A stretch of DNA of 64,000 nt from an uncultured Candidatus Saccharibacteria bacterium (GCA_964636285.1 CAZWQF010000006.1:938-64937), one strand, 5' to 3'; counted from the stretch's first letter, positions 4,829 to 61,795 are shown. The notes: generated by a model from the letters alone, not told the origin. A program made the numbers and translations.

Positions 4829-4979
4829 GAGGTATTTATATCAGAAAAGAATTGAGGGTTGAAGATTTTGTAACGATGAGTTGTTTTAGAAAGTAGAAGA
4901 GCCGCCCGTATGTCCAGAAAAATCTGACAAACGAGCGGCCCTTGCCGGTCAAGTAAGGGTTGTGAGCGAAGCCCTAATT

Positions 4980-5288
4980 CTAGGCTTTGACGTTGATGGT
5001 GCCCGCACCCCACTCATTGTTACAAACTGAGCAGTGGTGATCCGCACCTGGGTGTCGAAGGCCTCCCTTGATGGTCACGTCCTTGGTCATCACGCTTTGA
5101 CAAGAGCCGTAGCACTGAGGGCAACCGCACCCACAAAGCTCAGGACCTTGGCTTCTTGCAGTCGGGTGGTAGCCCTGGACACTCTCGGCCGAACCTCCTT
5201 GACGCGGATTCCCGGCACCGGTCCCTGACCCCGAATTTCCAACGACCACGTTCTTCGTACGCCCGCCCCATAACGCTGACAAAGGCAT
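4980..5288 (-). CDS. small Gly/Cys-rich protein encoded in a GC-rich island (hypothetical; possible metal-binding protein or peptide precursor)
   Basis: The ORF has an AGAGGAT Shine-Dalgarno sequence 6 nt upstream of the ATG. A C-terminal Cys cluster reads CGCGCPQCYGSC...HHCSVCN. A GC-rich hairpin follows the stop. Local GC is far above the backbone. Confidence 0.45.
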   Translation of the reverse strand: MPLSALWGGRTKNVVVGNSGSGTGAGNPRQGGSAESVQGYHPTARSQGPELCGCGCPQCYGSCQSVMTKDVTIKGGLRHPGADHHCSVCNNEWGAGTINVKA

Positions 5289-5385
5289 GGTATCCTCTAT
5301 TCTTCTTGGGCTGCCGTTACAACAGCCTAGTTTTGTGTGAGGATTCTAACACTATAGGTATGCATTTATCAAATCCCAATAAACC

Positions 5386-8124
5386 TTGTACCTTTTTTCT
5401 TTAGCCAATATACTAAAACCTATGTACTACACCAAAACTGCCGACGACGTTCTTTTAGAACTCAAAACCTCCGCCACAACTGGCCTTTCGCTTAATGACG
5501 CTTCCCAAAAACTCATCACAAACGGATTCAACGAGCTTCCTGAACCAAAAAAAGAGCCCCTCATACTTAAATTTCTTTCAGAATTCACAGACCCGTTGAT
5601 CATCCTCTTAATTATTGCGTCAGGAATTTCATATTTTCTTGGCGAAGGGATAGACGCACTCGCCATCATCGCAATCGTAATCATCAACGCAGTTATAGGC
5701 TTTTCACAGGAATATAAAGCCGAAAAAGCCATAGAAGCGCTAAAAAAGATGTCCGCTTCGTTTACAAAAGTTTTAAGAGATGGGGAAGTTCACAAAATAG
5801 AGGCAAAGAAACTTGTTGTTGGAGACATAATTCTCCTTGAAGCAGGAGACAAAGTACCAGCAGACGCAAGACTAATAGAGTGTGCAAACCTTGAGGTCTC
5901 AGAAGCAGTTATCACAGGAGAATCAGTGCCCGTAAAAAAATCACTTAATGTAATTTTGCAAGAAGGCCTTGCATTAGGTGACCAGAAAAATATGGTTTTT
6001 AAAGACACCTCAGTTGTTTACGGCAGGGCTAGAGCAATAGTCACAAGCACTGGCGCAGGTACGGAAGTAGGAAAAATCTCAACTCTTCTTAAAGAGGAGG
6101 AAACTGAACAAACACCTCTTCAAAAAGAAATAACAAAAGTTGGGAAAAGCCTAAGTATAGCTGCCTTATTAATAATTGTAGTTATATTTCTAACTGAAAT
6201 TTTCTTTGATGGAACAGATTTAAAACTCGCCTTTTTGAGCTCAGTAAGTCTTGCTGTTGCAGCCATACCTGAAGGTCTTCCTGCGGTCATTACCATTGTG
6301 TTAGCAATTGGAGTAACACGACTTGCAGCAAAAAAAGCCATCATAAGAAAGCTCCCCGCAGTGGAAACTCTGGGCGCAACAACTCACATTCTCACTGATA
6401 AAACAGGAACTCTTACACAAAATAGAATGGTTGTAACGGATCTTTATCTATCAGGTAACCAAGAATACAAAGTAGACGGCCAAGGGTACAATCCAAAAGG
6501 CTTTTTCTACAATAGTAGCAATGTGAAAGTAGAACCTAGGGAGCATGATAATTTATATAACCTTTTAAAATATGGTGCACTTTGTAACGATTCAACTCTC
6601 ACTGAAAACAAGGAAACAAATAAATGGGAAATTGTTGGGGATATAACCGAAGGAGCACTTGTAGTTACAACTGAAAAAGCAGGGATCAGCTATAAAAAAT
6701 TGAGAGATGAAAATAAAAGAATATACGAGATGCCTTTCTCTTCGATAACAAAAATAATGGCAACAGTGCACCGTACAGAAACAGGTAAAGCTCTAGTTGT
6801 TGTAAAGGGAGCTCCTGAAGTTATTGTTACAAAGTGCAAAATGCAAGAAGCGGATAGAAAACAAATTTTGGAGAAAGTTGATTACTACGCATCAGAAGGA
6901 CTCAGGAGTTTGGGTTTTTGCACTAAAGAAATAGATATTTCAGAGATTGATACCCTTGTTAACTCAGATGAAACAAAGAAAGAATCTCTAGAACAAAAAT
7001 TAATATCAGACTTAATTTTTACTGGAATTATGTGCCAAAAAGATCCTCTTAGACTAGAAGTTAAGGATGCTGTTTTTGAAGCACAGAAAGCAGGTATCAC
7101 AACAGTCATGGTGACAGGAGACCATAAGCTTACTGCGGTATCAATTGCAAAAGAGCTTGGAATTGCAAAAAGCGCGGAAGATGCAATGACTGGGGAGGAA
7201 ATTGCAAAACTAAGTCAAGAAGAGTTTGAACAAATCGTAATTACTAAAAGAGTTTTTGCAAGGGTATCGCCTGAACAAAAACTTAAACTTGTAAAGGCAT
7301 TTAAAAAAGCAAAAAACATTGTTGCTGTAACAGGCGATGGGGTTAATGACGCTCCTGCAATTAAAGCTGCGGATATAGGCATCTCAATGGGAATTGAGGG
7401 TACAGATGTTTCAAAAGAAGCATCAGACATGATTCTTCAGAATGACAACTACGCCACAATAGTTGCTGCAATTGAAGAGGGTAGAATTGTATTTGATAAT
7501 TTAATTAAATTTATTACTTACTTAATCTCGTGCAACATTTCAGAGATAATAATAATCTTTTTGTCGGCAGTTTTGAGAGATCCATTACCACTTCTTCCAA
7601 TACATCTACTATGGATAAATCTTGTTACAGATGGCTTTCCTTCCTTAGCTCTTGGTATGGAGCCTGGGGAAAAAGACATTATGAAAAGAGCCCCAAGACG
7701 TATATCAGAGGGAATTTTAAATTCCAAAAGATGGTTAATTATGGCTTTAGAAGGTGTGACTATGGGCTTAGCAGTATTTACTGCTTTTAAAGTTTCGAAC
7801 CATTACTTTGGTATTGATGTAGCAAGGACTGTAACTTTCTTGGCGCTTAATTTGGCCCAGCTTGTTCATTCGTTAAATAGTAGATCAGAGAAAAAATCTC
7901 TATTTAGTATAGGAGTTACAGGCAATAAGCTTTTACTTGGAGTTTTTGTTGTTTCCATAGCTGCTCAATTTCCTGTGATATATAGCGTAGTTGGAGAAAA
8001 ATTGTTCAAAGCTGTTGACCTTAACCTGGCACAACTTGGGATTGCATTTGCAGCTGCCTGCGTTCCGTTTGTAGTTGTAGAGGTGTTAAAAGTCTTCAGA
8101 CGAATGGAAAAAGCTAGCGCATAA
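5386..8124 (+). CDS. P-type cation-transporting ATPase (type II, Ca2+/Mg2+-like)
   Basis: DKTGTLT phosphorylation motif; KGAPE; TGDGVNDAPAL hinge; 8-10 TM segments; 912 aa. Confidence 0.85.
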   Translation: MYLFSLANILKPMYYTKTADDVLLELKTSATTGLSLNDASQKLITNGFNELPEPKKEPLILKFLSEFTDPLIILLIIASGISYFLGEGIDALAIIAIVIINAVIGFSQEYKAEKAIEALKKMSASFTKVLRDGEVHKIEAKKLVVGDIILLEAGDKVPADARLIECANLEVSEAVITGESVPVKKSLNVILQEGLALGDQKNMVFKDTSVVYGRARAIVTSTGAGTEVGKISTLLKEEETEQTPLQKEITKVGKSLSIAALLIIVVIFLTEIFFDGTDLKLAFLSSVSLAVAAIPEGLPAVITIVLAIGVTRLAAKKAIIRKLPAVETLGATTHILTDKTGTLTQNRMVVTDLYLSGNQEYKVDGQGYNPKGFFYNSSNVKVEPREHDNLYNLLKYGALCNDSTLTENKETNKWEIVGDITEGALVVTTEKAGISYKKLRDENKRIYEMPFSSITKIMATVHRTETGKALVVVKGAPEVIVTKCKMQEADRKQILEKVDYYASEGLRSLGFCTKEIDISEIDTLVNSDETKKESLEQKLISDLIFTGIMCQKDPLRLEVKDAVFEAQKAGITTVMVTGDHKLTAVSIAKELGIAKSAEDAMTGEEIAKLSQEEFEQIVITKRVFARVSPEQKLKLVKAFKKAKNIVAVTGDGVNDAPAIKAADIGISMGIEGTDVSKEASDMILQNDNYATIVAAIEEGRIVFDNLIKFITYLISCNISEIIIIFLSAVLRDPLPLLPIHLLWINLVTDGFPSLALGMEPGEKDIMKRAPRRISEGILNSKRWLIMALEGVTMGLAVFTAFKVSNHYFGIDVARTVTFLALNLAQLVHSLNSRSEKKSLFSIGVTGNKLLLGVFVVSIAAQFPVIYSVVGEKLFKAVDLNLAQLGIAFAAACVPFVVVEVLKVFRRMEKASA

Positions 8125-8130
8125 ACAAAA

Positions 8131-8154
8131 AACGACCGGTTTTAAACGGTCGTT
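8131..8154. terminator. GC-rich hairpin (AACGACCG-N8-CGGTCGTT), a rho-independent terminator mainly for the minus-strand island gene
   Basis: A perfect 8-bp stem. On the minus strand it is followed by UUUUUUG. It sits just after the ATPase stop codon. Confidence 0.55.
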
Positions 8155-8296
8155 ACTTGTCTTGAAAAAACCAGGCGTTATGCCTCACTTTCTCAAGCAA
8201 AACACATTCAACGGTATCAAGAGCCGTTTACCAATTTGTAAAAGGTCCTTGCGGAGTCAGTCTTCAAATTGGCTGTGTTCTCTACGAAGTCAGAGC

Positions 8297-8803
8297 TTAG
8301 TAGTCCCCACCCCACTCTGGATCGTCATAGTAGCCGTCTCTCAGACGTGCCCAGTCCAGAGCTTCAAGACTATGAGGACTCAAGGCCGGAGGAACAGGAA
8401 ACACCACCCCGGTTTGTTGAAAGAGAAAAGCTCTTCGAGCTTTCACCTCCAAAGCTTTCTGCTCCTCAAGAAGACGAAGCCTACCCTCCTCATTCTTCAG
8501 GTGCTTCTGAATATAAGGCCTGAGCTCAGATGGAAAGCTTCCCATCATGCTGGACAAGAGCTCCATAGAGGCCACATTGAACTCCGGGTCCTTGCCGTGC
8601 CACACCATTACGGTCAAGGGCGACTTGGCAACAACCACAATAGTAACTGGAAGCAATGCCCTGCCAGAGCGCCTCTGCCAAGCTTCGACCTGATGGCCAA
8701 TAAGAAGCTGAAGCTCCCAATGACTTTTGACCAAACCTTTGCTCCAGACACGGCCCGAGCACTCAACACCTTCCTCCCCAATCACAAAATAGTTGTATCT
8801 CAT
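8297..8803 (-). CDS. hypothetical protein encoded in a GC-rich island
   Basis: The true start is at MRYNYFVIGEEG, with a perfect AAGGAGG Shine-Dalgarno sequence 5 nt upstream. The longer ORF in the six-frame track reads through this sequence. The gene is GC-rich and has its own terminator. Confidence 0.55.
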   Translation of the reverse strand: MRYNYFVIGEEGVECSGRVWSKGLVKSHWELQLLIGHQVEAWQRRSGRALLPVTIVVVAKSPLTVMVWHGKDPEFNVASMELLSSMMGSFPSELRPYIQKHLKNEEGRLRLLEEQKALEVKARRAFLFQQTGVVFPVPPALSPHSLEALDWARLRDGYYDDPEWGGDY

Positions 8804-8955
8804 GACACCCTCCTTAGGCGTCAAGCCTGTTGTTGAATTTGGAAGATTCTACACTTTATCCACAGAATTATCAAATACTATAGGTTGGTTGGTTTGCTCT
8901 TTGATCCAAGACAGTTAAGGGCGCGCCAGTATACCCGTCGTGATATCATTACCTC

Positions 8956-12616: not shown

Positions 12617-13681
12617 TTGCGGGAAATATGCAAGAATTATTGCGTGTACTTTCCCGAGTTTTCTGTAACAACTAACATATTAAATTTTTCGGGACAAATT
12701 GAGGCTGCAAAGGCAGTTATTGAGGTCATTCCAGTAGTCAGTTCGTGGGAAAAAAGCCTTGAAAGGGAAGCGGCCTTAAAAACTATCTACCACTTAAATC
12801 ATTTTGATGGGGTTAAGCTTTCTCAAGAAGAGGTAAAGTACTTTTTTGAAGGTAAAGACGTCTCCACTGCAAAGTCGGTAACTCATGAAATCGAAAACAC
12901 TCAAGAAGCTCTGGACTTTGTGAAAGCAAGACCAGATCTTAACGAGGAAACTCTTAAAATGCTCCACTCAATTCTAGTAAAAGGCATCACTCACGAATCT
13001 AAAACTGGGTATTACAGGAAAACCCCAATCCAAAACTATAACTCAAGCTTCATACAATCCGCAGGTCCCGATGAGGTTGTGGCTAGTCTATTAAGCTTCT
13101 TTGCATGGCTTGAAACCCCAGATGCAAAAGAGATCCCAGCGCCTGTCAGGTCTTCAATCATTTATCTAGAGTTCATAAAAGTGTCCCCATTTGATTCGCA
13201 CAATAAAAAGATTGCTGCACTTTTTGCACTTCTTAATTTGTACATAAATGATTACGATAAATACAAAGCAGTAACAATAGATAAATCCGCAGACGAGAAT
13301 CCAACATCTTTTTTTCAAGCGATTAGGTCAACCCAAAATCCTACAGGAGATATAACAAGATGGATTGAATACTATGTCTCAAACCTAACCCAGGAATTTT
13401 CCGGACTAAAAGATAAGATTGTTTCGTTATCAAAAGAAAATAAAGTAAGAGCAGTGGCAGGGATGGCCCCTTTAAACGAAAGGCAAGAGCGCGTAGTTGA
13501 GTACCTTCACGACTACGGAAGTATTCAGAACAAAGACTTTGCAAGACTTTTTTACGGAATCTCAGAGGATACAATTCTAAGAGACTTGAAAGATTTAATT
13601 TCAAAAAAGATCATACAAAAGGTTGGAAGCACTAAATCTTCAAGATACACAATTGCAACTACAGGAACTGCCGTCAGTTAA
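12617..13681 (+). CDS. Fic/DOC-fold protein with degenerate active-site motif and C-terminal winged-helix domain
   Basis: The Fic core is recognisable (LHSIL, GYYRK, IPAPV). The position of the HPFx[DE]GNGRxxR motif reads SPFDSHNKKIAA, so the catalytic His is replaced by Ser. A C-terminal wHTH-like domain is present (DFARLFYGISEDTILRDLKDL). Confidence 0.45.
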   Translation: MREICKNYCVYFPEFSVTTNILNFSGQIEAAKAVIEVIPVVSSWEKSLEREAALKTIYHLNHFDGVKLSQEEVKYFFEGKDVSTAKSVTHEIENTQEALDFVKARPDLNEETLKMLHSILVKGITHESKTGYYRKTPIQNYNSSFIQSAGPDEVVASLLSFFAWLETPDAKEIPAPVRSSIIYLEFIKVSPFDSHNKKIAALFALLNLYINDYDKYKAVTIDKSADENPTSFFQAIRSTQNPTGDITRWIEYYVSNLTQEFSGLKDKIVSLSKENKVRAVAGMAPLNERQERVVEYLHDYGSIQNKDFARLFYGISEDTILRDLKDLISKKIIQKVGSTKSSRYTIATTGTAVS

Positions 13682-13702
13682 GCAACCTGATATACTTCCA
13701 CC

Positions 13703-15505
13703 ATGGAGTTTTCCGTATTTTCAACTTACTTACAAAGGCTGGAATCAACTACAAAAAGGCTTGAAATCACAGCAATACTTGCAGAAATGTTAAAGGAGCT
13801 TGAGCTTTTGGAGACGGATAAAGCTGTGTACCTTTCGCTTGGACAGCTAGGGCCACAGTTTGCTCAAATTGATTTTGCTTTAGCAGAAAAGATGATGCTA
13901 AGAATTCTGGCTGCCGCATTTGTAACAAAGGAGGAAGAAGTACAAAAACTTTATGACAAAATTGGAGATATTGGAACTGTTGCAGAGGAACTTGCAAACA
14001 AAACCACCAGGGTTTCAGGTCAAAAGAAAAAGGGAGGTAGTATCACAATCTTATATGTGTACGAACACTTACTTGAGATAGCGCTTATCAGTGGTACCGG
14101 TTCTCAAGAAAAAAAAGTGTCAAAGTTTGCGGAGCTTATTTCAAAATTGGATCCTCTTTCGGTTAGATATGTCACAAGAATTCCCACAAAAAACACTAGA
14201 CTAGGGTTTTCAGATGTAACAATTATTGAGGCTCTTTCTTGGATGGAAACTGGTGGAAAATCATTAAAAGCAGAAATAGAAAGCTACTTTCATGTGTATC
14301 CGGACATTGGAAAAATTGCAAAACTTTTCAAAGAGGGACAAATAAACGGGCTCAAAAAAGTTCGGCTTGAAGTTGGGGTTCCTATACTTCCTCAGCTATG
14401 CCAAAGAGTTTCAACAGCGGAGGAAGCAATAGAAAAACTTGGGGGGCAGGCAGGTGTTGAAATCAAATACGACGGCACAAGAGTTCAGCTCCACATGGAT
14501 AAAAAACGAATGGTAGAAATGGGCGATTCTGACCAGCTTACTTTTTTTGATAATAAAAAAAAGATGCCTTATGTTAGGTCCTTCACAAGAAACCTTGAAG
14601 AATCAACCAACATGTTTCCAGATTTAGTAAAAGCAGCAATTGAGCAGATTGATGCAGACTCGGTAATTCTTGATGGCGAAGCAGTGGGCTATGATCCAAA
14701 AACTCAAAAGATGATTCCTTTTCAGGAGACAAGTCAGAGAAAAAGAAAGCACGGGATTATGGAAAAAGTTTCTGAAATCCCGTTACGGTATTTTGTGTTC
14801 GACCTACTTTACCTTAACGGGAAACCGCTTTTAGACCTTTCCTTTAACGAGAGGCGTGAGAAATTAAAGAAAATTGTGAGAAAAGGGGAAACAATTGTAG
14901 TAGACGAACAGAGAATTGTAGAGGATCCTGAGGAGCTATTAGAGTTTTTCAATGAGATAAAAGGCCAAGGGCTAGAAGGCGTAGTGATGAAAAAACTTGA
15001 TAGCAAATATGAGGCGGGAGGAAGGGGCTACTCTTGGGTAAAGTTTAAGAGAGAGGAGACAGGCGGACTTGAGGACACAATAGATGGGGTAATCCTTGGC
15101 TACTATCTTGGAAAAGGGAACAGGGCAAAGTTTGGAATTGGAGGTTTCTTGGTAGGACTTTTTGATCCTCAAAAAGATGCGTTTACTACAGTCTGTAAAG
15201 TAGGGAGCGGGCCCACAGAAGAGGAATGGCAGGAAATAAAAAAACGCGTAGATAAAATTAAGACCAAAGAGAAACCTGCTAATCTAGAAATAGATAAAAC
15301 ACTAGTTCCAGACGTTTGGTCAAAACCTGAGATTATAGTTGTGATAAGGGCTGATGAAATTACGGTATCCGAAGTACATACAGCAGGCTATGCATTAAGA
15401 TTTCCAAGACTCATGGCATTTAGAGAAGATAAAAGCGCAACGGATTCAACTACACCAAAAGAAATAAAAAGACTATTTGAAATCCAGCAGAATAAAAGAA
15501 AATAA
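13703..15505 (+). CDS. ATP-dependent DNA ligase (Lig1/LigB-type with N-terminal DNA-binding domain)
   Basis: Adenylation motif I EIKYDGTRVQ (KxDGxR); motif LEGVVMK; ~600 aa with an N-terminal DNA-binding domain and a C-terminal OB domain. Confidence 0.8.
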   Translation: MEFSVFSTYLQRLESTTKRLEITAILAEMLKELELLETDKAVYLSLGQLGPQFAQIDFALAEKMMLRILAAAFVTKEEEVQKLYDKIGDIGTVAEELANKTTRVSGQKKKGGSITILYVYEHLLEIALISGTGSQEKKVSKFAELISKLDPLSVRYVTRIPTKNTRLGFSDVTIIEALSWMETGGKSLKAEIESYFHVYPDIGKIAKLFKEGQINGLKKVRLEVGVPILPQLCQRVSTAEEAIEKLGGQAGVEIKYDGTRVQLHMDKKRMVEMGDSDQLTFFDNKKKMPYVRSFTRNLEESTNMFPDLVKAAIEQIDADSVILDGEAVGYDPKTQKMIPFQETSQRKRKHGIMEKVSEIPLRYFVFDLLYLNGKPLLDLSFNERREKLKKIVRKGETIVVDEQRIVEDPEELLEFFNEIKGQGLEGVVMKKLDSKYEAGGRGYSWVKFKREETGGLEDTIDGVILGYYLGKGNRAKFGIGGFLVGLFDPQKDAFTTVCKVGSGPTEEEWQEIKKRVDKIKTKEKPANLEIDKTLVPDVWSKPEIIVVIRADEITVSEVHTAGYALRFPRLMAFREDKSATDSTTPKEIKRLFEIQQNKRK

Positions 15506-15558
15506 TTGGCCGCGACTCGGAGATGAAATCAAATTTCTCCGAGCAACGGCCAAAAGTA

Positions 15559-52320: not shown

Positions 52321-52621
52321 ATCCTATATTTATCACTATAGAGACGTGTTATGCAACCTTTCCACAAACCTCCTCATATTACTTTCTTATATAATATATC
52401 AAGAAGCAGTTGTATTAGTGGTGTGGATATGTTGATTTCGGTAGTTTTAGGTCTTGGTTGTCACTAATACAATTTATATTTGAGTTTATACCTTTAGAAT
52501 GCTGTTATTCCTGCTGTTAACTACCCGAAACCCCCTGTTTTTTGTTGTACCCTCGTGTTTATAAGTTGTATGTTTTGGTGGATATCGTTGTGGATAAGTA
52601 GGGGTAGTTATCCACACTGCT
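52321..52621. promoter_or_regulatory. candidate oriC: DnaA-box cluster plus AT-rich unwinding element immediately 3' of dnaA
   Basis: Two perfect DnaA boxes in inverted orientation, TGTGGATAA at 52589-52597 and TTATCCACA at 52608-52616. Several one- or two-mismatch boxes elsewhere (52422-52430 and others). An AT-rich stretch at 52386-52405. Confidence 0.55.
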
Positions 52622-53989
52622 TTACGCACCTATATTCAAAGTTCTTTTAATGTTGACAACATCTGCTTTGATCCTTGTATCTGCATTAAGCTCCAGCTCT
52701 ACTTTTTCTGTTCCGTGCATTATAGTTGTGTGATCTCTTCCTCCAAGAATATCTCCAATTACCATATATGGCGTATCTGTAAACTTTTTTAAAAGATACA
52801 TTGATACTTGTCTTGGAACTACATACTCTTTAACCCTACTTTTTCCTTTTAGATCTGTAATTTTTATATTGTAATAAGCACACACAGTCTTTAAAAGTTC
52901 GTTTACATTTACAACCGGTTTACCAATATTTTGGCCTAAAAACTTTGCGCAGTACTCAACGGTGAGGTCTTGCCCTTCGGCTTTTGCTCTTGTAATGATC
53001 TGCAAAAAGTTTCCTTCCAGCTCTCTAATGTTTGTCTCAATGTTTTGTGCAATGTAGTCCACTACATTGTTTGGGATGCTTTCTCTCATTATGTCTCTCT
53101 TTTCTCTTAAAATGGCACTTCTTGTTTCCGAATCAGGCTTTTGCATATCAGCAACAATTCCGCTTGCAAACCTTGAAGTAATTCTTGCATCCAGCTTTGA
53201 TAATTCTTTTGGAGGTCTGTCTGAAGTAAGCACAATTTGCTTTTGAGACATGTAAAGAGCGTTAAAAGTGTGGAAAAATTCTTCTTGCGTGGCTTCTCCT
53301 CTTCCTGCAATAAATTGAATATCATCAATTAACAGCACATCTGTTTTTCTGAATTTGTCTCTAAACTTGTTTGCGGTATAGTTCTTATTCCTACCTGCCT
53401 GTATAGCCTCTATAAGCTCGTTCATGAAAGTTTCTGCTGTAGCATATACAACCCTAGCTTTTGGATTCTGTTTGAGCACAGCGTTCCCTATGGCCTGCAT
53501 TAGGTGTGTTTTACCAAGACCCACACCTGCATGAAGAAAAAATGGGTTGTAAACTTTTCCTGGGTTTTCAGAAACTGCAGTAGCAATTGCATGAGCAAGC
53601 CTGTTTGATGGCCCCACAATAAAGCTTTCGAATGTATATTTTGGGATCAGGCCTGCGTCTTCATACGCGTCTTTTGTAAGCGCTTGCTGCTTTTTTTGCA
53701 TGTCGTTGAAGAGTGGTAGGTCTTCAACTTTTGTTTGTACTTCTCTTTTTTCTACTCTGAATGTTATTTCAACGCTCGTTTTTGAAATTCTATCCACGGT
53801 TGATTTTAAAAGGCCGTAGAATTTTTTGTTTATTTGATCTGCAATGTATTCGCTTCCAACCACAACTTCAATGTTGTTCTCTTTTGTTTCTCCAAGCTCT
53901 GCATGAGAAAAGAACGACTTAAAGACGGCTTTTGATAGAACTGTTTCTAGTTCGCCTAATGTGGCTTTCCATAATTCAGAATGATTCAT
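52622..53989 (-). CDS. dnaA: chromosomal replication initiator protein DnaA
   Basis: AAA+ Walker A GVGLGKTHL; C-terminal DnaA-box binding domain; 455 aa. A perfect DnaA box TTATCCACA lies at 54027-54035 in its promoter region. Confidence 0.9.
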   Translation of the reverse strand: MNHSELWKATLGELETVLSKAVFKSFFSHAELGETKENNIEVVVGSEYIADQINKKFYGLLKSTVDRISKTSVEITFRVEKREVQTKVEDLPLFNDMQKKQQALTKDAYEDAGLIPKYTFESFIVGPSNRLAHAIATAVSENPGKVYNPFFLHAGVGLGKTHLMQAIGNAVLKQNPKARVVYATAETFMNELIEAIQAGRNKNYTANKFRDKFRKTDVLLIDDIQFIAGRGEATQEEFFHTFNALYMSQKQIVLTSDRPPKELSKLDARITSRFASGIVADMQKPDSETRSAILREKRDIMRESIPNNVVDYIAQNIETNIRELEGNFLQIITRAKAEGQDLTVEYCAKFLGQNIGKPVVNVNELLKTVCAYYNIKITDLKGKSRVKEYVVPRQVSMYLLKKFTDTPYMVIGDILGGRDHTTIMHGTEKVELELNADTRIKADVVNIKRTLNIGA

Positions 53990-54049
53990 AGGATTTTGGC
54001 AGGTGGTAACAATCTATTTATAAAGTTATCCACAATTTTGTCAATGATT

Positions 54050-54520
54050 TTATGAAGTTTTAAGCGCCTCTTTGCACAAGGTTTTAACTATAGGAAGTAT
54101 GTTTGAATCCTCAATTTCCTTATTGGTAAACCATTTAAGCTCTTGCCCCTCAAGCGGTTTTGGCTCCGCATCTGAGCTCACTAAATACGCAAAGCAAATA
54201 TTCTTGTGCTTTGTTTTTGTAGTCCCGTCGTTTTCTAAAGTGTGTCTATAAGAGGCGAATGGGGTTGGCAAAGATTCGTGCAGCTCCTCAGTTGGGAAAA
54301 GAGGTTTACTTATAAAATTAATTTCTACACCAAGCTCTTCCCTCACCTCTCTTTTGACTGCAATATGAGGTTCTTCAAAAGGCTCAACATGACCTCCTGG
54401 GAGTTTCCAGCCGATAGAGCTGTTTGAGCTCTTTTCGAGCAGAATTTTACCATCCTTTATAAGTGCAAAATTAGCTACATAATCTATTGGGAGTTTTTGA
54501 TCAAGTTCTACAAAATTCAT
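54050..54520 (-). CDS. NUDIX hydrolase (second copy)
   Basis: Nudix box GGHVEPFEEPHIAVKREVREELGVE. The start is likely at MNFVELD, since the upstream extension overlaps the VKOR gene. Confidence 0.7.
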   Translation of the reverse strand: MNFVELDQKLPIDYVANFALIKDGKILLEKSSNSSIGWKLPGGHVEPFEEPHIAVKREVREELGVEINFISKPLFPTEELHESLPTPFASYRHTLENDGTTKTKHKNICFAYLVSSDAEPKPLEGQELKWFTNKEIEDSNILPIVKTLCKEALKTS

Positions 54521-54939
54521 ACTTTTTGCATTTTCTGATAAATAGAAAGTCCTAAAATTCCAAGCATGGTAAATTGACACATAAGGCAAACTGGACAATA
54601 AACTTTTAGTTGAAAAAGCTCGATGTATGTAATTCTTAGGCAAAATAGCGTCCCAAACAAAGCCATTCCCAAAACCAGCTTAAACTTATTCTTTACAGCT
54701 CCAAACAAAATTATAATGTATCCAATAAGTCCGTATAAGGAGGTTGGAACTCCTAGCGTTTTTGAAACCTCTCCGCTAATCACAGCATCACAATTTACAT
54801 TCTGGCTTATTGTACATAGCCTAACTTTAGGCTGAAAAATAAAGTTATAAAAAAGATAGCTTGCAAGAAGAACTCCAAAAACTGAAAGAAAAATTATGGA
54901 CTTTTTGATCTGACCTTTCATGACCAGATTATACTCCAA
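54517..54939 (-). CDS. VKOR-family membrane protein (second copy)
   Basis: Loop Cys pair C...C and TM CPVC; 4 TM; 140 aa. Confidence 0.6.
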   Translation of the reverse strand: MEYNLVMKGQIKKSIIFLSVFGVLLASYLFYNFIFQPKVRLCTISQNVNCDAVISGEVSKTLGVPTSLYGLIGYIIILFGAVKNKFKLVLGMALFGTLFCLRITYIELFQLKVYCPVCLMCQFTMLGILGLSIYQKMQKV

Positions 54940-54941
54940 AA

Positions 54942-55286
54942 TTATTTTTTGCTTTTTGTAAACGAAAACAGAACGCTGTTCACAAGGGAAAGTACTACTG
55001 CAAATAAAAGCGCGCTTAAAAACCCGTTTACCCTAAACCCCGGCACAAAGTAATCAGTAATCATTACCATTGCAGCAGATATGACAAGACTAAACAGCCC
55101 AAGAGTTAATATGCTTAGAGGTAATGTAAGAATTTCCAGTATAGGTTTAATTACTGCGTTTGAGACTGCCAAGACAACAGACACTACAATAGCAATAAAA
55201 AACCCATCCACATGTACTCCAGGTATTAAGTAGGCACAAATCATGACTGCAACGCCGCTAAGAAGAAGATTTAAAATTGTTTTCAT
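54942..55286 (-). CDS. small 4-TM membrane protein of the YvlD / phage-holin-4_2 (PF04020) family
   Basis: 114 aa with four hydrophobic helices; sequence pattern of the PF04020 family. Confidence 0.5.
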   Translation of the reverse strand: MKTILNLLLSGVAVMICAYLIPGVHVDGFFIAIVVSVVLAVSNAVIKPILEILTLPLSILTLGLFSLVISAAMVMITDYFVPGFRVNGFLSALLFAVVLSLVNSVLFSFTKSKK

Positions 55287-55293
55287 CGTATTA

Positions 55294-58200
55294 TTATACC
55301 TCCGATCCGATTATTCCTGTGACATTTGTTGTTCTGTTAAGTTTTCCCCAAGAAACATTAGACCCCTTAATAGCAGATAGCACAACTTTGATGCTAATAA
55401 AATAAAAAAGGAACCTATATAAAACTCTTTGAAGAGGAAGAAGCCTTACCAAATACTGTTCCTCCTTTTCCTCAAGCATTAACGCTGCCACTGAAACAAG
55501 GTAATCCACAAACAGAAACACAAGGTAGAAGTAGGCAATTTTTCCAAGACCTTCAAAAGAAGCACTTGGGTGTTGGAATTTCTGAAACAGGTCTATTGCA
55601 ACCAAAAACATTGCATATACGTCTAAAATTGGCGCTACCAAAGGAAAAGCTATTTGAAACACAATTACGTTGGGTACTACTACAAGTCCAAGAAACTTAT
55701 ACTTTGGCTTGAGAATCACATCCTGGTGTTTCCATATTGCTTGAAATGTGCCAAACATCCATCTATATCTTTGCTTGATAAAGTCCCTAATGTTTTCTGG
55801 AGCTTCTGTATAACTTATCGCCCTTTCTTCATACTCAACCTTGTATCCAAGTTTTAAAACTTTAAGAGTTAATTCGGCGTCTTCTGCAAGAGTGTCCGTT
55901 CCAAACCCGCCCACCTTCTCTAGCAGGTCTTTTCTCCACACACCTATTGCACCAGGCACCACTGTAATGCTGTTAAGCAACGCAAATGCTCTTCGATCAA
56001 GATTTTGACTTGTTACATACTCAAGGGCTTGGAACTTTGTTAACAAATTTACTCTGTTTCCTACCTTTGCATTTCCTGCTACCGCTCCAACTGAAGTGTC
56101 TTTGAATCGCCTGACAATTTTGCTGACAGCATTTGCTTTTAGAAGAGTGTCTGCGTCCAAAACCATTATTAACTCTGCACTACTTTGGTTTACTGCAAAG
56201 TTGATAGCGCTAGATTTGCCTCCTCCATTCGTTTGAAAAATTTTAACTTTGGGATTTCCTTTAAACGCTGCTTTTGTAATTTCAAATGTTGAGTCTGTAG
56301 ATCCATCATCTACCACAATAACCCCAAGGTTGTTGTAAGTTGATCTTAAGATGTTATCCACAGTCCTTACAATAACTTTTGCCTCGTTTAAGGCTGGTAT
56401 AACAATAGAAATCGAAGGGGTAAACTTGGCGTCATATACTTTTTTCCTTGAGCTAACCTTTTGAATTACAGCAAGAACAAATATTAAAATTTGTCTGGAA
56501 ATACCAAGCATAATTCCAACTACAAAAAGATTTGTGACAAACTTATAAAAGAGATACGCAAGGGTAAAACCCATATTACTTGAATAGTTAATTAGAGGTT
56601 TGGTGGCTTTGGCAGGAGGCATGATCTGATCCCTTGTTAGACCCATCAATTCTGAAACTGTCACAAACTCATACCCTTGCTCTTTGAGGTTTGAAATTAT
56701 GTAAGGAAGTGCCTGGATTGTTGCGGTTCTATCTCCACCACCGTCATGTAAAAGTACAATGTTCCCATCGCCGTTTTTCACCTTCTTTTCTACATCCTGC
56801 GCAATTTCAAGTGCGCTTGGTTTTGCCCAGTCTTTTGGGTCAACATTCATTCCCACTGTAAAGTAGCCTAACTCTCCTGCGGTAATGAGAGTTTTTAATT
56901 GCGAAGGGGTTTGCGGTTCTACATCCTCACCGTACGGAGGTCTAAATAGCAGGGTGCTTCTTCCTGTTGCACTTTCGATTAGTTTTTGGGTGGCATTTAT
57001 CTCAAGAAGTGCCTCTTTGGTTGAAGTAAGTTCAAGGTTGGGGTGGGAGAAGGTGTGGTTTCCAATTTCGTTTCCTTCGTTATATATCCTTTGCAAAATG
57101 TCCCTATTAGCATTTCCTAGCGCTCCAATAATAAAAAACGTACCACGCACCCCTTGGTTTTTGAGAGTGTCCAAAATCTTAGTTGTATATTTTTTTGTAG
57201 GTCCGTCATCAAAAGTTAGAGCCACTTTTTTTGAGACTAGTCCGTATCTTTGAACGGTGTATGGGTTTGGGGCTGTCACAATTTTTTCAGATAATACTTT
57301 GGTGGTAGGGTCTTCTGTAATTTCCCTTGACCCCATTGTTGGCATCGCTTTTATTTTTATAGTCTCTCCGGTTCCAAGGTAGTTTATCCCGTACCCGTAC
57401 TGCATCTCTTGCATATTCCCAACAGCCTGCCCGCCATTATTTAAGTCTTTGGTAAATAGCGCCCATATCTGTGGGTCTTCGGATCCGAGTCTCCACATTG
57501 CAAAACCTTTAACCCCAGAGTTCTGGGCCTCTTTTATCTGGTTATATGCGGTGATACCATCTAAAAACCAAAGAGTATGTGCGGAAAATCCGTTATCCAC
57601 ATATGTAAAATAAGGGTTTGCGCTGATTGAATCCCAGCTGAATGTAGCTTTTGCTAGCTTGGCTTTGGTCATAACTTCGTCGTAGCTGAGGCTTACTGCA
57701 TTTGTTGTCCCTGCTTGCCAGTCGTACCCATACTGTCCCAGAGCCACAACAACTTTTTCCGCAGGTATTTGCTGAAGTCTCCAAGCAAGCTTCTCTTTAA
57801 ACCAATTTTGTGACGAAATAGCCCCAGGCTCTCCGCCTGCCCAGTGTTCGTCATAGGCCATTAAAATCAAATAATCGCTGTACTCTGAAAGACTAAACCC
57901 GCTAAAGTCGTCGTCATCAAGAGGGATTGAAGCAGAGACAGCAAGCCCTTCGGATTTGAATCTTGCATACAGGTCACGCATAAAAAAGTGAAACGAATTC
58001 ATGTCCTCGGGGTACATATTCTCAAAATCAATGCTTACCCCATCAAACTGACCCTCCTTAACAAACTTAACCGCGTTACTTATAAGCTCCTGCTTTTTTG
58101 TTTCGTTTTTAAGAAATATTGCTGTAAGCTCTGGATCAAAGCTTTGGGTATCAGAGTTGTAATTATTTATGAGAGGCACAATTTTTATTGAAGAGTTTTC

Positions 58201-58686
58201 TCTCCTAACGTAATTAGTAACTTCTTTTTGATAATCTTTGTTGTCTGAAATCACGTCCCCGTCCTTTGAAATGTGCCCCCATTCAGGTGTTAGTGTTGTA
58301 ATGCCCTTGAGGTTTTGTTTTAAAGACGCAAAGCTTGCGGGGTCCCAGTTTACAAAATATCCCACAACTTCTTTTTGAGGAGTTTTATCCGTGGTTTTAG
58401 GTGTGGGTTGATAAGCAATATTTATACTTTGGTTGCTGTGACCTGTTTGTTGAAGGGCATCTACAGTTAAACCTCTGCTTGGCGCCCCGCCTTTTCTTGC
58501 AATTAGGCTACTCGGGTCTTCAATCCCAAAACTGTTTTGAAATTCGGGTATGTTTAAAATAGAGTACCCCATTGCGGTTACTGTGGTTGCAACAAAAATT
58601 GCAAAAACAAAAACTACCGCTAGAAATATATTCCATCTGCTTCTTTTTGAAGAATAAAAGATTGGTTTGACCTCAGAAGACTTCAT
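55294..58686 (-). CDS. multidomain exopolysaccharide enzyme: TM anchor + GH18-like glycoside hydrolase + CE4 (NodB) polysaccharide deacetylase + GT2 processive glycosyltransferase
   Basis: GH18 DxxDxDxE-type DGVSIDFENMYPED. CE4 motifs TFDDGP, HTFSHP, RPPYG, LLHDGGG. GT2 motifs VDDGSTDST, LDADT and Q(R)YRW. 1130 aa with internal and C-terminal TMs. Confidence 0.75.
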   Translation of the reverse strand: MKSSEVKPIFYSSKRSRWNIFLAVVFVFAIFVATTVTAMGYSILNIPEFQNSFGIEDPSSLIARKGGAPSRGLTVDALQQTGHSNQSINIAYQPTPKTTDKTPQKEVVGYFVNWDPASFASLKQNLKGITTLTPEWGHISKDGDVISDNKDYQKEVTNYVRRENSSIKIVPLINNYNSDTQSFDPELTAIFLKNETKKQELISNAVKFVKEGQFDGVSIDFENMYPEDMNSFHFFMRDLYARFKSEGLAVSASIPLDDDDFSGFSLSEYSDYLILMAYDEHWAGGEPGAISSQNWFKEKLAWRLQQIPAEKVVVALGQYGYDWQAGTTNAVSLSYDEVMTKAKLAKATFSWDSISANPYFTYVDNGFSAHTLWFLDGITAYNQIKEAQNSGVKGFAMWRLGSEDPQIWALFTKDLNNGGQAVGNMQEMQYGYGINYLGTGETIKIKAMPTMGSREITEDPTTKVLSEKIVTAPNPYTVQRYGLVSKKVALTFDDGPTKKYTTKILDTLKNQGVRGTFFIIGALGNANRDILQRIYNEGNEIGNHTFSHPNLELTSTKEALLEINATQKLIESATGRSTLLFRPPYGEDVEPQTPSQLKTLITAGELGYFTVGMNVDPKDWAKPSALEIAQDVEKKVKNGDGNIVLLHDGGGDRTATIQALPYIISNLKEQGYEFVTVSELMGLTRDQIMPPAKATKPLINYSSNMGFTLAYLFYKFVTNLFVVGIMLGISRQILIFVLAVIQKVSSRKKVYDAKFTPSISIVIPALNEAKVIVRTVDNILRSTYNNLGVIVVDDGSTDSTFEITKAAFKGNPKVKIFQTNGGGKSSAINFAVNQSSAELIMVLDADTLLKANAVSKIVRRFKDTSVGAVAGNAKVGNRVNLLTKFQALEYVTSQNLDRRAFALLNSITVVPGAIGVWRKDLLEKVGGFGTDTLAEDAELTLKVLKLGYKVEYEERAISYTEAPENIRDFIKQRYRWMFGTFQAIWKHQDVILKPKYKFLGLVVVPNVIVFQIAFPLVAPILDVYAMFLVAIDLFQKFQHPSASFEGLGKIAYFYLVFLFVDYLVSVAALMLEEKEEQYLVRLLPLQRVLYRFLFYFISIKVVLSAIKGSNVSWGKLNRTTNVTGIIGSEV

Positions 58687-58706
58687 TCTCTGCTATAATG
58701 CGCTGA

Positions 58707-59540
58707 ATGAAATCGCGCAAATACCTGCTTTTTTTAATACCTATAGTTATCATAGTTTTACTAACTTATATCATTATTAGACAAAGTTCAAGAATTATGA
58801 TGAGTCCTGTAGTTAAATCTAGTTTGACAGGAGGTTCCACAAAACTTTTGGAGATAGTGGAAGCACTTGAGTCGAGCGAATCGAGCACATCAAGCAAAGG
58901 ATCAAAGATTCCAAATCCCCTAGCCTTTGTTGCTGACCTTTTTAAAGAAAAATACCCTGTACACAAAGATATAAGCACTACCTTTTTTTGGGTTGGAGAA
59001 CCTTCCGATGAGGATAACCATTTTATTCCTAACAAAGCGAGCGCTTGGGATGACGAATGGATGAAGCATTACGGTGGTCCTGACGATCCCGAAAAAAGAA
59101 AAAACCTCCTTCCCGAAAACTTTAAGCCAAAAGAAAACCCATTTTACTTTGCGCTTCCCTACAATGATTTTGATGAAGATGGAAAAAGACGAAAAGATTT
59201 AAGTAAGGTTGTATATTGGTTTGACCAAAAAAAGTGGGGTAAAGAGGAGTCTATGCTAAAAAATAGGTGGATAAAAATAACCAAGGGGGATAAAGACGCC
59301 TATGCGCAGTGGGAGGATGTAGGTCCTTTTGGAGAAGATGACGCCAAGTATGTCTTTGGTAAGTCCGCTCCAAAAAATAAAGACAACAAAAGTGCAGGTC
59401 TTGATGTCTCGCCTGCCGTAAAAGAATACTTAGGTCTTAAAGATTTGGATAAAACAGATTGGCAATTTGTTGATGAAAAGGACGTACCTGATGGCCCTTG
59501 GAAAGAGGTTATAACCAAATCTCAGGTTAATTGGAAATAA
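58707..59540 (+). CDS. hypothetical secreted or membrane-anchored protein
   Basis: N-terminal TM; Ser-rich linker; no motif. Confidence 0.45.
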   Translation: MKSRKYLLFLIPIVIIVLLTYIIIRQSSRIMMSPVVKSSLTGGSTKLLEIVEALESSESSTSSKGSKIPNPLAFVADLFKEKYPVHKDISTTFFWVGEPSDEDNHFIPNKASAWDDEWMKHYGGPDDPEKRKNLLPENFKPKENPFYFALPYNDFDEDGKRRKDLSKVVYWFDQKKWGKEESMLKNRWIKITKGDKDAYAQWEDVGPFGEDDAKYVFGKSAPKNKDNKSAGLDVSPAVKEYLGLKDLDKTDWQFVDEKDVPDGPWKEVITKSQVNWK

Positions 59541-59554
59541 CTTTAATTATGTCA

Positions 59555-59591
59555 AAAGCGCCGTTGGGTTTTTTGCCCGCCGGCGCTTTTT
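59555..59591. terminator. bidirectional rho-independent terminator (AGCGCCG-loop-CGGCGCTTTTT)
   Basis: A GC-rich stem flanked by T5 on the plus strand and A/T-rich sequence on the minus strand. Confidence 0.55.
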
Positions 59592-59602
59592 GAGACTTTT
59601 TG

Positions 59603-59839
59603 TTAGGCAACTCCAAGACAGCTCGCCAGCTCATTGAACGCCACATCCGAGCCGTCCGTTTTCCAGTGATGGTTGGCATAAAAAGCCGCAGTTTGCCACC
59701 CCGCAAAATACCTAAGAAAGGCCCCAACATTGTCTCCACTCATCCGATTCATCATGCTGGCAAGAGCTTCTCTTGGGTTCTCGCTTCCCTTGACGCTCTC
59801 AACCATTTGGTCATATTTGGAGGTGTCGAGAAGTTCCAT
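59603..59839 (-). CDS. small hypothetical protein (78 aa) in a GC-rich island (island H)
   Basis: A GGAG...AGAGG Shine-Dalgarno region is upstream. The gene is GC-rich. A C9 homopolymer lies upstream at 59929-59937. Confidence 0.4.
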   Translation of the reverse strand: MELLDTSKYDQMVESVKGSENPREALASMMNRMSGDNVGAFLRYFAGWQTAAFYANHHWKTDGSDVAFNELASCLGVA

Positions 59840-59980
59840 TTTAACCTCTAGCTCCTGTGAAAGCAGGATACTTGTGGGTTATATATTACCCTATAGTGCG
59901 AGTTTTTACAAACCAGTCTGCCTTCCTTCCCCCCCCCTCATTCTATTGCGGTTTTCTTCGGGTTTTATTAAAATACCACT

Positions 59981-61378
59981 GTGTTCCCCAGGAAAATGAC
60001 ATTTGTAGATGTCGAAACAACCGGCGGCTCGTACAGGCGAGACCGAATAATAGAAATAGCTCTTATCCAAACCGAAGACGGAAAAATAACAAGTACCTTT
60101 CAATCATTAATTAATCCAGAACAACGGGTTCCAGAGTCAATTCTTGAAATGACAGGGGTTATACAGGCAGAGCTTGAAAAGGCGCCTACTTTTAGTGAGG
60201 TAGTGCAAGAAGTGGGGGAGCTTTTGGCCGATTCGGTTTTTGTTGCTCACAACGCAGCGTTTGATTACGGATTTGTTAAAAACGAATTTAGACTCCTTGA
60301 GAAGAACTATTCTGCAAAATGTCTCTGTACGGTCAAGTTATCAAGAGCACTATTCCCAAGCTACAGGTCTCACAGTCTTGATAGCCTGATAAAAAGATTT
60401 GGGTTTGAGGTTAATAATAGGCATAGGGCTTATGATGACGCCAAAGTAATGGTTGATTTTTTTGATCTTGTAAAATCTCAATTTGAACCTGAAAAAATAG
60501 AAAAAGCTGTGAGCGCTATTCTTAAAAGGCCTTCAATTCCTGTTCGTATCTCAGAGAAAAAGCTTAATAGTTTGCATGAAGGGCCTGGAGTATATATTTT
60601 TTATGGCGACACGGGGATTCCGCTATACATTGGAAAGAGCGTGAGTGTTAGGGATAGGGTTCTTTCGCACTTTTCTGCGTCTAGCTTTTCAAGTACCGAG
60701 CTAAATATTGCTTCGCAAATAAAAGATATTGAAGTTATAAAGACGGAAGGGGAGCTTGGAGCTTTATTAAAGGAATCGGAGCTTATAAAAAGGATGCTAC
60801 CTGTGTATAACAAAAGGCTTAGGGTTGTTGAGAACCTGGCTTATATTAAAGGCGGGATAAACAGCCAGGGGTATAAAACTATTTTTCTTACTACTGATGC
60901 TCTTGAGGAGGGGGAGACCCTTGGAATTTTTAAAACTCAAAAACAAGCTAAAGATAGAATTGAGGAGCTTTGTGAAAAGCATAGGCTTTGTAAGAAGCTT
61001 CTTGGGCTTGAAAAATCTCACACAAAAGGACAATCGTGTTGTTTTGGGCATCACCTTGGGAAGTGTAAAGGTGCTTGTGTGGGCGAGGAGCCTGCAAAAA
61101 TGTACAACCTTAGATTTGATATGGCATTTGTGGAGACAAAGCTTAAATCCTGGCCTTTTAAAGGTCCTGTTTTAATAACCGAAGGAGACTCGGCTGTTAT
61201 TGTTGATAACTGGGTCTGCAAAAGTGTAGAAACAAATATTTCAGAGGTGCCTTTGGGAAAAGAAGGGTTGCCTGATTTAAGTGGTTTGCACGAGACAAAA
61301 TTTGATCTGGATACCTACAAGATTCTTTCAAGTTACATTTTTTCAAAGAAAAACCAGAAAAATATAAAGGTGATGTAG
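59981..61378 (+). CDS. Cho-like nuclease: DnaQ/epsilon-type 3'-5' exonuclease domain fused to a GIY-YIG (UvrC-like) endonuclease domain
   Basis: DEDDh motifs FVDVETTG, HNAAFDYGF, HRAYDDAK; a GIY-YIG motif GVYIFYGDTGIPLYIGKS...R. Confidence 0.7.
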   Translation: MFPRKMTFVDVETTGGSYRRDRIIEIALIQTEDGKITSTFQSLINPEQRVPESILEMTGVIQAELEKAPTFSEVVQEVGELLADSVFVAHNAAFDYGFVKNEFRLLEKNYSAKCLCTVKLSRALFPSYRSHSLDSLIKRFGFEVNNRHRAYDDAKVMVDFFDLVKSQFEPEKIEKAVSAILKRPSIPVRISEKKLNSLHEGPGVYIFYGDTGIPLYIGKSVSVRDRVLSHFSASSFSSTELNIASQIKDIEVIKTEGELGALLKESELIKRMLPVYNKRLRVVENLAYIKGGINSQGYKTIFLTTDALEEGETLGIFKTQKQAKDRIEELCEKHRLCKKLLGLEKSHTKGQSCCFGHHLGKCKGACVGEEPAKMYNLRFDMAFVETKLKSWPFKGPVLITEGDSAVIVDNWVCKSVETNISEVPLGKEGLPDLSGLHETKFDLDTYKILSSYIFSKKNQKNIKVM

Positions 61379-61453
61379 GAGGTAGAAAAGGCACCCCTAC
61401 GAATATACATAGAGGTGCCTCCCTCACAACAAGGTTCGAGATGCGCGTCTTTT

Positions 61454-61702
61454 TCAGCCTTGCAGGCTCTGCTGGACGCCAATCATGTAACAGGAATCTT
61501 TTCCGGTTGCGCCGGGGTGTCCTGGGATTGGCGCTTGAAGGATGGTGTCCATGGCGTTCGCAACATCCTGGGGCATGTCAGCTCTGTTTGCTGGGCGTGG
61601 CTGGTCAACCCACCACTCATGAAACTTTTCCCATGCCCGTTTGACCACGTCCGGGTATTGTTCATGCTCTTCTGGAAGAATCGGAATTCCTCGCGGTAGC
61701 AT
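61454..61702 (-). CDS. small hypothetical protein (82 aa) in a GC-rich island (island I)
   Basis: A TAAGGAGA Shine-Dalgarno sequence lies 8 nt upstream. The gene is GC-rich. A hairpin at 61389-61420 is downstream. Confidence 0.4.
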   Translation of the reverse strand: MLPRGIPILPEEHEQYPDVVKRAWEKFHEWWVDQPRPANRADMPQDVANAMDTILQAPIPGHPGATGKDSCYMIGVQQSLQG

Positions 61703-61795
61703 CAGTGGGTCTCCTTACTTTTGTAGCGATTGTTGTGAGGGCTTTATTATAAAACTTTAAACCTATAGCATCAAATTGATTTTTCCCTGAAAAAA

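Follow-up and report, generated by a model that had tools for sequence, protein, structure and literature searches.

The stretch of DNA analysed here (the window: 64,000 nt, one strand, GCA_964636285.1 CAZWQF010000006.1:938-64937) comes from an uncultured Candidatus Saccharibacteria bacterium and is a segment of a Patescibacteria (Candidate Phyla Radiation, CPR) chromosome with a GC content of 40.1%. The backbone consists of housekeeping genes, including mnmA, a P-type ATPase gene, fpg, recF, a Lig1-type ATP-dependent DNA ligase gene, lgt, DsbA/VKOR, rpiB, rpe, a split transketolase gene, pfkB, a 2-hydroxyacid dehydrogenase gene, VIT1, the genes for endonuclease III and signal peptidase, ftsH, trpS, divIC, a Xer-like recombinase gene, a ComFC-like gene and dnaA. 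Between these genes, an original prediction had placed nine GC-rich micro-islands carrying small genes, and all nine proved to be real GC maxima. We refer to them as islands 1 to 9 (I1 to I9), with a and b denoting the genes within the two-gene islands 3 and 7. Taking the first ATG of the best open reading frame (ORF) in each block yielded 11 island ORFs, plus one possible ORF of 48 amino acids (aa) in island 4, and these were compared with 61 backbone ORFs, 22 of which were no longer than 200 aa.

Island 1 (4829-5385, minus strand) lies between an HEPN-like gene and the P-type ATPase gene, and change-point segmentation delimited its GC-rich core to 4899-5327 (57% GC). The predicted signals are a promoter-like site at 5372-5343 and a hairpin at 4896-4946, flanking an ORF of 102 aa (4980-5288, minus strand) that is Cys-rich and preceded by only a 4 nt AGGA match. 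The GC content at the three codon positions of this ORF was.57/.58/.61, showing no codon-position periodicity, and its exact sequence was not found among the called genes of the protein collection; for these two reasons its coding status is doubtful. The HEPN (RNase LS-like) gene directly downstream of island 1 (4346-4828, minus strand) is native in composition, and its Pfam score of 27.8 bits is slightly under the 29-bit cut-off. The terminator hairpin and the HEPN gene's own leaderless-type promoter lie between the two.

Island 2 (8125-8955, minus strand, 50% GC) is located between the P-type ATPase gene and a GT4 glycosyltransferase gene, with a predicted promoter-like site at 8874-8846 and a predicted bidirectional terminator at 8125-8154. 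Its gene (8297-8803, minus strand) encodes a soluble ORFan of 168 aa, has AAGGAGG 5 nt before the ATG and forms a singleton cluster; its third-position GC content is ~0.56, computed on the longer ORF 8297-8824. Island 3 (15506-16904, minus strand, 51% GC) is a two-gene unit between the ATP-dependent DNA ligase gene and a conserved gene of 110 aa, with a predicted promoter at 16882-16854 and a predicted terminator hairpin at 15506-15553. Gene b (16269-16784, minus strand, 171 aa) has an N-terminal membrane anchor (transmembrane residues 4-32) and AGGAGG 5 nt upstream; it was called as a gene in a Logan assembly and is a singleton cluster. Gene a (15559-16158, minus strand, 199 aa) likewise encodes an N-terminal membrane anchor, with GGAGGT 3 nt upstream and a third-position GC content of 0.62.

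Island 4 (22636-23491, minus strand, 52% GC) is flanked by a PA14-domain gene and by the gene encoding the N-terminal transketolase half, and carries predicted promoter-like sites at 23413-23357 and a predicted terminator at 22688-22737. Its gene (23011-23307, minus strand) encodes a soluble protein of 98 aa, has AGGAG 7 nt upstream, was called in both Logan and NCBI data and is a singleton cluster. The possible second ORF (22848-22994, minus strand, 48 aa) has AAGGA upstream of its ATG and is uncertain; the Logan call at this site is a same-frame version of 74 aa. Island 5 (26925-27689, 58% GC), on the plus strand, lies between the pfkB kinase gene and a zinc-ribbon gene and ends in a predicted terminator at 27645-27689 that is bidirectional in form. 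The island 5 gene (27005-27631, plus strand) encodes a multi-pass membrane protein of 208 aa with four hydrophobic segments, preceded by AAGGAG 9 nt upstream, and is the strongest compositional outlier of the set, with GC contents of.58/.41/.76 at the three codon positions.

The remaining islands are smaller and all on the minus strand. Island 6 (29676-30115), between the 2-hydroxyacid dehydrogenase gene and VIT1, has a predicted -10 box at 30035-30040 and terminator at 29688-29747; its gene (29781-29981, minus strand) encodes 66 aa with two hydrophobic helices, has AAGGAG 6 nt upstream, and its exact sequence was not in the protein collection. Island 7 (35496-36186) is the second two-gene unit, positioned between a 5'-3' exonuclease gene and ftsH, with a predicted -10 box at 36171-36176 and terminator at 35554-35594. 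Its genes b (35876-36133, minus strand, 85 aa, AGGAGGTG 7 nt upstream) and a (35607-35831, minus strand, 74 aa, AAGGAG 5 nt upstream, singleton cluster) each encode two hydrophobic helices. Island 8 (59541-59980), the weakest at 47% GC, lies between a gene of 277 aa and an RNase T-like exonuclease gene, and its predicted terminator (59549-59591) is bidirectional in form; its gene (59603-59839, minus strand) encodes a soluble protein of 78 aa, has AGGAG 12 nt upstream and was called in two Logan assemblies. Island 9 (61379-61795, 53% GC), between the exonuclease gene and a gene of 127 aa, has a predicted TATAAT box at 61746-61751 and terminator at 61381-61423, and carries a called gene (61454-61702, minus strand) for a soluble protein of 82 aa, with AAGGAG 8 nt upstream, that is again a singleton cluster.

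Eight of 10 exact ORFs were independently called as genes in NCBI or Logan data, and all eight were singleton clusters known from this contig only. The original prediction described the products as mostly transmembrane; strongly hydrophobic helices, indicating membrane or membrane-anchored proteins, were predicted in six of the 11, so that this description is borderline, and about five products are small and soluble. Ten of the 11 ORFs are on the minus strand, as had been noted, which corresponds to eight of nine units and is only marginally significant. The window contains just two G9/C9 tracts, one in the 3' part of island 4 (22746-22754) and one upstream of island 8 (59929-59937); such tracts might act as switches prone to slippage, or might just belong to the foreign sequence.

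The blocks measured 56.1, 50.3, 50.8, 51.7, 58.1, 49.6, 49.1, 47.2 and 53.4% GC for islands 1 to 9, respectively. This range of 47-58% is lower than the 55-68% originally claimed, and the GC-richest interval of 300 nt reached 59%; backbone ORFs were 34-44% GC. In change-point segmentation, the GC-rich core coincided with the ORF and terminator, while the promoter flank remained AT-rich. The GC content at third codon positions (GC3) was 0.47-0.76 in the 11 island ORFs, compared with 0.347 ± 0.032 (range 0.27-0.42, maximum 0.42) in the 61 backbone ORFs. The two sets did not overlap (Mann-Whitney p = 1.6e-7), bearing out the predicted enrichment of third positions and distance in codon usage. Among synonymous codons, CGN accounted for 49% of Arg codons in the islands versus 11% in the backbone, ATC for 56 versus 19% of Ile codons, and CTG for 23 versus 6% of Leu codons. 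Amino acid usage was also shifted, with Trp used four times as often as in the backbone, Gly and Pro 1.5 times as often, and Lys half as often.

Pooled GC content at the three codon positions of the islands was.56/.43/.59, and most of the ORFs showed a coding-type periodicity in which GC2 is lower than GC1 and GC3. The pooled pattern is the coding type of a genome with roughly 50-55% GC. Arg makes up 4.4% of island residues, against ~11% in our own estimate for random sequence of equal composition, and this marked deficit gives the island ORFs the appearance of real coding sequences. The soluble island proteins are GC-rich as well, so that hydrophobic amino acid content does not explain the shift. 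The composition points to a source of roughly 50-55% GC (higher for island 5), and not to the classic high-GC taxa first proposed as donors.

The islands also differ from the backbone in their predicted expression signals. The suggestion that every island ATG is preceded by a Shine-Dalgarno (SD) sequence applied to 10 of the 11 first-ATG starts, using a criterion of at least 5 nt of the AAGGAGGT core located 3-12 nt upstream, and failed only at the AGGA of island 1. The same criterion selected 14% of all ATGs within the GC-rich regions (binomial p = 4e-8). A core of at least 5 nt was present at five of the 61 backbone starts (Fisher p = 6e-8), and the 56 starts below this threshold agree with the original prediction that backbone genes often have no SD sequence; the few backbone genes with an SD sequence mostly appear to be operon-internal. 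Predicted -10 boxes were positioned 37-73 nt upstream of the island ATGs, often with a TTGAT -35 element. Boxes of the TAnAAT type were found at this distance in I1, I2, I3b, I5, I6, I7b and I9, and predicted consensus promoter matches occurred at islands 1-4. This spacing implies that island transcripts would be leadered, with leaders of 35-70 nt. An ATTTGAT -35-like heptamer, 14-21 nt upstream of a TAnAAT-type -10 box, is common to the predicted promoters of islands 1, 2, 6 and 9 (5343-5379, 8846-8882, 30035-30070 and 61746-61780, respectively).

A GC-rich hairpin follows all nine units, as had been predicted. The downstream regions (up to 120 nt) folded with -24 to -40 kcal/mol, and most of the hairpins are followed by a T-run. 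Several hairpins carry an A-run on the opposite side, and could therefore also terminate the convergent backbone operon.

The native promoters are of a different kind, with mostly an extended -10 box and a weak -35 element. At 18 of the 61 backbone ORFs, the start codon is preceded at a distance of 5-9 nt (mode 6) by the end of a TAnnnT box, which often has an extended TGn motif; examples are at 38059-38080 (ftsH), 13681-13702 (ligase), 8934-8955 (GT4) and 58686-58706. We took this spacing as a signature of leaderless mRNA, and on this basis the first-in-operon genes of the backbone look leaderless. A similar leaderless-type pattern was seen in the related loci L002, L003 and L083. It should be noted that the contrast in SD usage is consequently not independent evidence of a foreign origin, as leadered island mRNAs would need an SD sequence in any case and the backbone appears to be leaderless.

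We compared the window with related loci to establish whether the islands are shared. The nearest was L002, from a Patescibacteria metagenome-assembled genome (MAG) of Hainich groundwater, with 75% aa identity on the dehydrogenase used as marker gene, followed by a MAG of candidate division WWE3 with 59% aa identity; genome and metagenome scans found no relative above 75% aa identity. L002 is collinear with 15.2-39.1 kb of the window, and islands 1, 2, 8 and 9 are outside the retrieved loci. Islands 3, 6 and 7 are missing from L002, where the flanking genes are separated by 66, about 10 and about 18 bp, respectively. Island 4 is missing together with the PA14-domain gene. At the site of island 5 (26925-27689), L002 carries a class II fructose-bisphosphate aldolase gene (L002 8230-9090, Pfam E = 1e-81); no aldolase gene was found anywhere in the window, which suggests gene replacement or loss at this site. 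No island 3 sequence was present in L003 or L083, and in L085 and L007 pfkB directly adjoins the 2-hydroxyacid dehydrogenase gene. All five testable islands were thus absent from the syntenic position, in outgroups that are distant (50-75% aa identity). This absence indicates that the islands are lineage-specific, with gain as the parsimonious polarity, and agrees with the original view that they are not universally conserved native genes.

The PA14-domain gene beside island 4 (21529-22635, plus strand) is missing from both L002 and L003, yet is native in composition (40% GC, GC3 0.36). Not every lineage-specific gene in the window is therefore GC-rich. At the position equivalent to island 4, the WWE3 locus L003 has a GC-richer spacer (4946-5578, 46% GC versus 36% for the locus) with a GC-rich ORF of 105 aa. 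The spacer aligned to island 4 no better than by chance and gave no Rfam match. As the two are not alignable, we rejected the idea of a conserved element at this position; the island 4 site may be a recurrent insertion spot. We also considered whether such islands are a general CPR trait, and rejected this: a scan for GC3 outliers in nine other CPR loci identified one in L003, one in L043 and none in L002. Intervals of 300 nt that are GC-rich were common in those loci, and the scan gave no link between these intervals and small ORFs with outlying GC3.

Homology searches returned no relatives of the island proteins. I5 and I2 matched only themselves in an index of 5.8 billion proteins, and I3a matched only itself in an exhaustive HMMER search of 1.84 billion (1.84e9) representatives. 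The island proteins tested had no Pfam, NCBIfam, PHROGs or PADLOC match, no match to them turned up among viral contigs or in 2 Mb of sequence from related CPR loci, and searches of PDB sequences with I3a, I3b and I1 gave nothing credible. A tblastn search of phage and plasmid collections was also without a match, with a query of fused island proteins, a design that missed even self-hits elsewhere; the fused query missed known self-hits in the 5.8-billion-protein index, and that search was not counted as negative evidence. Single-sequence AlphaFold2 models had predicted local distance difference test (pLDDT) scores of 44 for I3a and 59.6 for I2, and a Foldseek search of the PDB with the I2 model gave no match at E <= 0.001.

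A mobile-element source, also part of the original prediction, was not borne out. We considered copies of a repeated element and rejected this possibility, as all-against-all blastp and blastn comparisons showed no similarity of the islands to each other. Their borders lacked target-site duplications, terminal inverted repeats and consistent direct or inverted repeats, including the direct repeats that had been proposed as a test. The window contains a single tyrosine recombinase gene, the Xer-like one (39836-40747), far from the islands, and the tRNA genes (39.1-39.4 and 42.9 kb) adjoin no island. A search for attC-like sites found one symmetric RYYYAAC-N-GTTRRRY pair in the 6.4 kb of island sequence, near the background density. 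With no shared sequence, repeats, attC sites or adjacent mobility genes, the islands are not copies of one element, integron cassettes or integrase-type islands.

The tRNA genes include a tRNA-Ile with a UAU anticodon (42865-42939, minus strand), which overlaps the 3' end of the longest ORF of a Na+/H+ exchanger gene (41169-42908). A tRNA-Ile with this anticodon is uncommon in bacteria. The other two tRNA genes (39128-39202 and 39291-39364) have CAU anticodons.

Taken together, these results lead us to favour a model in which the nine blocks are independent, lineage-specific foreign insertions into intergenic spacers, each a self-contained transcription unit, and we assign this reading a probability of roughly 0.6. 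Horizontal acquisition of the island genes as accessory genes is the most likely explanation. The donors would have had roughly 50-55% GC or more, and might be other Patescibacteria, partner organisms or unsampled mobile elements. Entry may have been by DNA uptake followed by integration through illegitimate recombination; the ComFC-like gene (double zinc ribbon plus phosphoribosyltransferase; 45569-46333, minus strand) and the Lig1-type ligase gene (13703-15505, plus strand) of the backbone are, as annotated, compatible with DNA uptake and end-joining. Horizontal transfer into Patescibacteria is documented, with competence as a proposed route (PMC12455944). Each unit would then be read from a sigma-70-type promoter (-10 box 37-73 nt from the ATG) through an SD-containing leader and one or two short ORFs to an intrinsic terminator, several of which, being bidirectional in form, could also stop the convergent backbone operon. 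If the ORFs are expressed and useful to the cell, their products are probably accessory proteins acting at the cell envelope.

Several observations weigh against this model. No homologue or donor was found for any tested island protein, which is unusual for ordinary horizontal transfer, and no integrase, transposase, tRNA, att site or repeats were found at the island boundaries. Expression of the islands is a prediction, and island 1 may be non-coding. The polarity of insertion leans on outgroups of about 50-75% aa identity, the closest at 75%, and the syntenic comparison spans five of the nine islands. The AlphaFold2 models are of low confidence, and we drew no functional inference from them. 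The proposal of foreign acquisition holds with respect to absence from relatives and foreign-looking composition, codon usage and amino acid usage; its further expectation of a donor and a mobile-element signature was not realized in the searches made.

Among the alternatives, we consider it unlikely that the islands are native, having arisen de novo, by overprinting or through very rapid divergence, with their GC content the outcome of selection, for example for Trp/Gly/Pro-rich membrane proteins or for stable leadered mRNAs. All tested proteins are strict ORFans, the promoters resemble ordinary host-type sigma-70 promoters and mobility signatures were not found, all of which would suit such an origin, and a large survey makes the case that orphan genes in prokaryotes are mostly of native origin (PMC11293555). 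However, the relative has merely 10-66 bp at the corresponding sites, which leaves no precursor DNA. The shift at synonymous sites matches that in amino acid composition in strength (GC3 was 0.59 for the pooled islands and 0.76 for island 5; the backbone value was 0.35), and the GC richness extends to soluble island proteins. The same survey reports that orphan genes match or fall below the GC content of their own genome, with phage-derived or de novo orphans lower in GC (PMC11293555); the island excess of 10-20 points over the genome therefore argues for an external source. Less probable still is an ancestral origin, in which the genes were deleted from L002 and the other relatives during genome streamlining. 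Patescibacteria genomes are streamlined and the outgroups compared here are all distant, which would favour loss, but parallel clean losses would be required in several lineages, and neither the foreign composition nor the homologue-free result across about 15 billion proteins would be explained.

In AT-rich genomes, non-coding RNA (ncRNA) genes classically stand out as GC-rich intergenic regions, and some or all of the blocks could be structured ncRNA genes whose ORFs just reflect the scarcity of stop codons in such sequence. In line with this explanation, islands 2, 4, 5 and 9 contain long ORFs in both orientations, the ORF of island 1 is aperiodic and uncalled, and the minus strand of island 4 folds with z = -3.1, a value that its terminator hairpin probably accounts for in part. 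We nonetheless regard it as improbable. Rfam at the gathering threshold identified three tRNAs only in the whole window, a permissive scan of islands 1 and 4 gave nothing credible, and the fold z-scores of island 1 (-1.2 and -0.7) were no better than those of shuffled controls; moreover, most ORFs show coding periodicity, the transmembrane helices are well formed, and the arrangement of SD sequences and first ATGs is highly non-random. Lastly, the source is a metagenome-assembled contig, into which GC-rich reads of another organism might have been spliced during assembly or binning. Our check was made at the level of contigs. Logan contigs of run SRR12762304 were 100% identical to the window over 15515-26784 and 49603-62269, and a contig of a second run, SRR12762303, matched 58474-60230 (island 8), so that both borders of islands 3, 4, 8 and 9 are spanned by independently assembled contigs. 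Chimeric assembly is unlikely on this evidence. The independent assemblies of two runs are identical across island junctions, all nine inserts lie exactly between intact genes, and the AT-rich promoter flanks and terminators fit the neighbouring genes, making an artefact very improbable overall.

If the favoured model of independent foreign insertions is true, about 10% of a 64-kb stretch in a streamlined CPR genome was recently gained, in the form of self-expressing single-gene units for uncharacterised envelope proteins, and ultra-small bacteria gain foreign genes singly, with no classical mobile-element machinery involved. The island genes would then be candidates for roles in host interaction or defence, and the composition of the islands, about 50-60% GC, could help to find partner organisms in the same metagenome. 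The juxtaposition of a leaderless backbone with leadered, SD-bearing islands would also offer a natural system for studying foreign-gene translation where SD sequences are rarely used. A more speculative extension, which we regard as rather unlikely, is that an episymbiotic-type lineage repeatedly captures entire foreign transcription units (chromosomal 'morons') from a single GC-richer partner or host, or from a few of them, or from their mobile elements, by uptake and illegitimate end-joining, and retains their SD-dependent leadered expression in a largely leaderless genome. Were this capture to be real, the islands would constitute both a record of partner identity and a separate translational class of envelope proteins devoted to the association.

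The closest parallel is the phage moron in the sense of Juhala and Hendrix, a single gene, equipped with its own promoter and terminator, that has been inserted at the junction of two genes which are direct neighbours in related phages (PMC4378225). Like morons, the islands comprise one or two ORFs between a sigma-70-type promoter and a factor-independent terminator (both predicted here), and sit between genes that are adjacent in a relative (islands 3, 6 and 7, and island 4 jointly with the PA14-domain gene). They also deviate in composition from the adjacent genes, and share with morons an obscure mechanism of acquisition with no recognisable recombinase target sequence. Unlike morons, they are located in a cellular housekeeping chromosome (dnaA, ftsH, trpS, lgt, transketolase) and not in a phage or prophage, the island proteins tested had no PHROGs, phage-genome or viral-contig match, and their density is high, at nine units in 64 kb.

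Integron cassettes and the islands have in common a small size, a foreign composition, a single ORF in most cases, and an inverted repeat on the 3' side of the unit. However, the islands are dispersed over 57 kb and not arrayed, have their own predicted promoters whereas cassettes are generally promoterless, and show no RYYYAAC...GTTRRRY enrichment, intI or attI. Their 3' hairpins are perfect GC stems with T-runs, which identifies them as terminators and not attC sites. In comparison with the acquired genomic islets and ORFans that Lawrence and Ochman-type analysis detects in bacterial chromosomes from their atypical GC and codon usage, the islands are similarly atypical at all codon positions, absent from relatives and composed of short, homologue-free ORFs. 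They differ in that their GC content exceeds that of the host; foreign or orphan genes usually match the genome or are richer in AT (PMC11293555). They also differ from acquired islets in being single-gene units with no tRNA, integrase or repeat association and no homologues found in a donor lineage. Viewed against these systems, the islands represent a process that is already known, here in a clean and dense form, rather than a novel type of system. That ORFans of atypical composition are acquired is textbook knowledge, and current concepts are unchanged.

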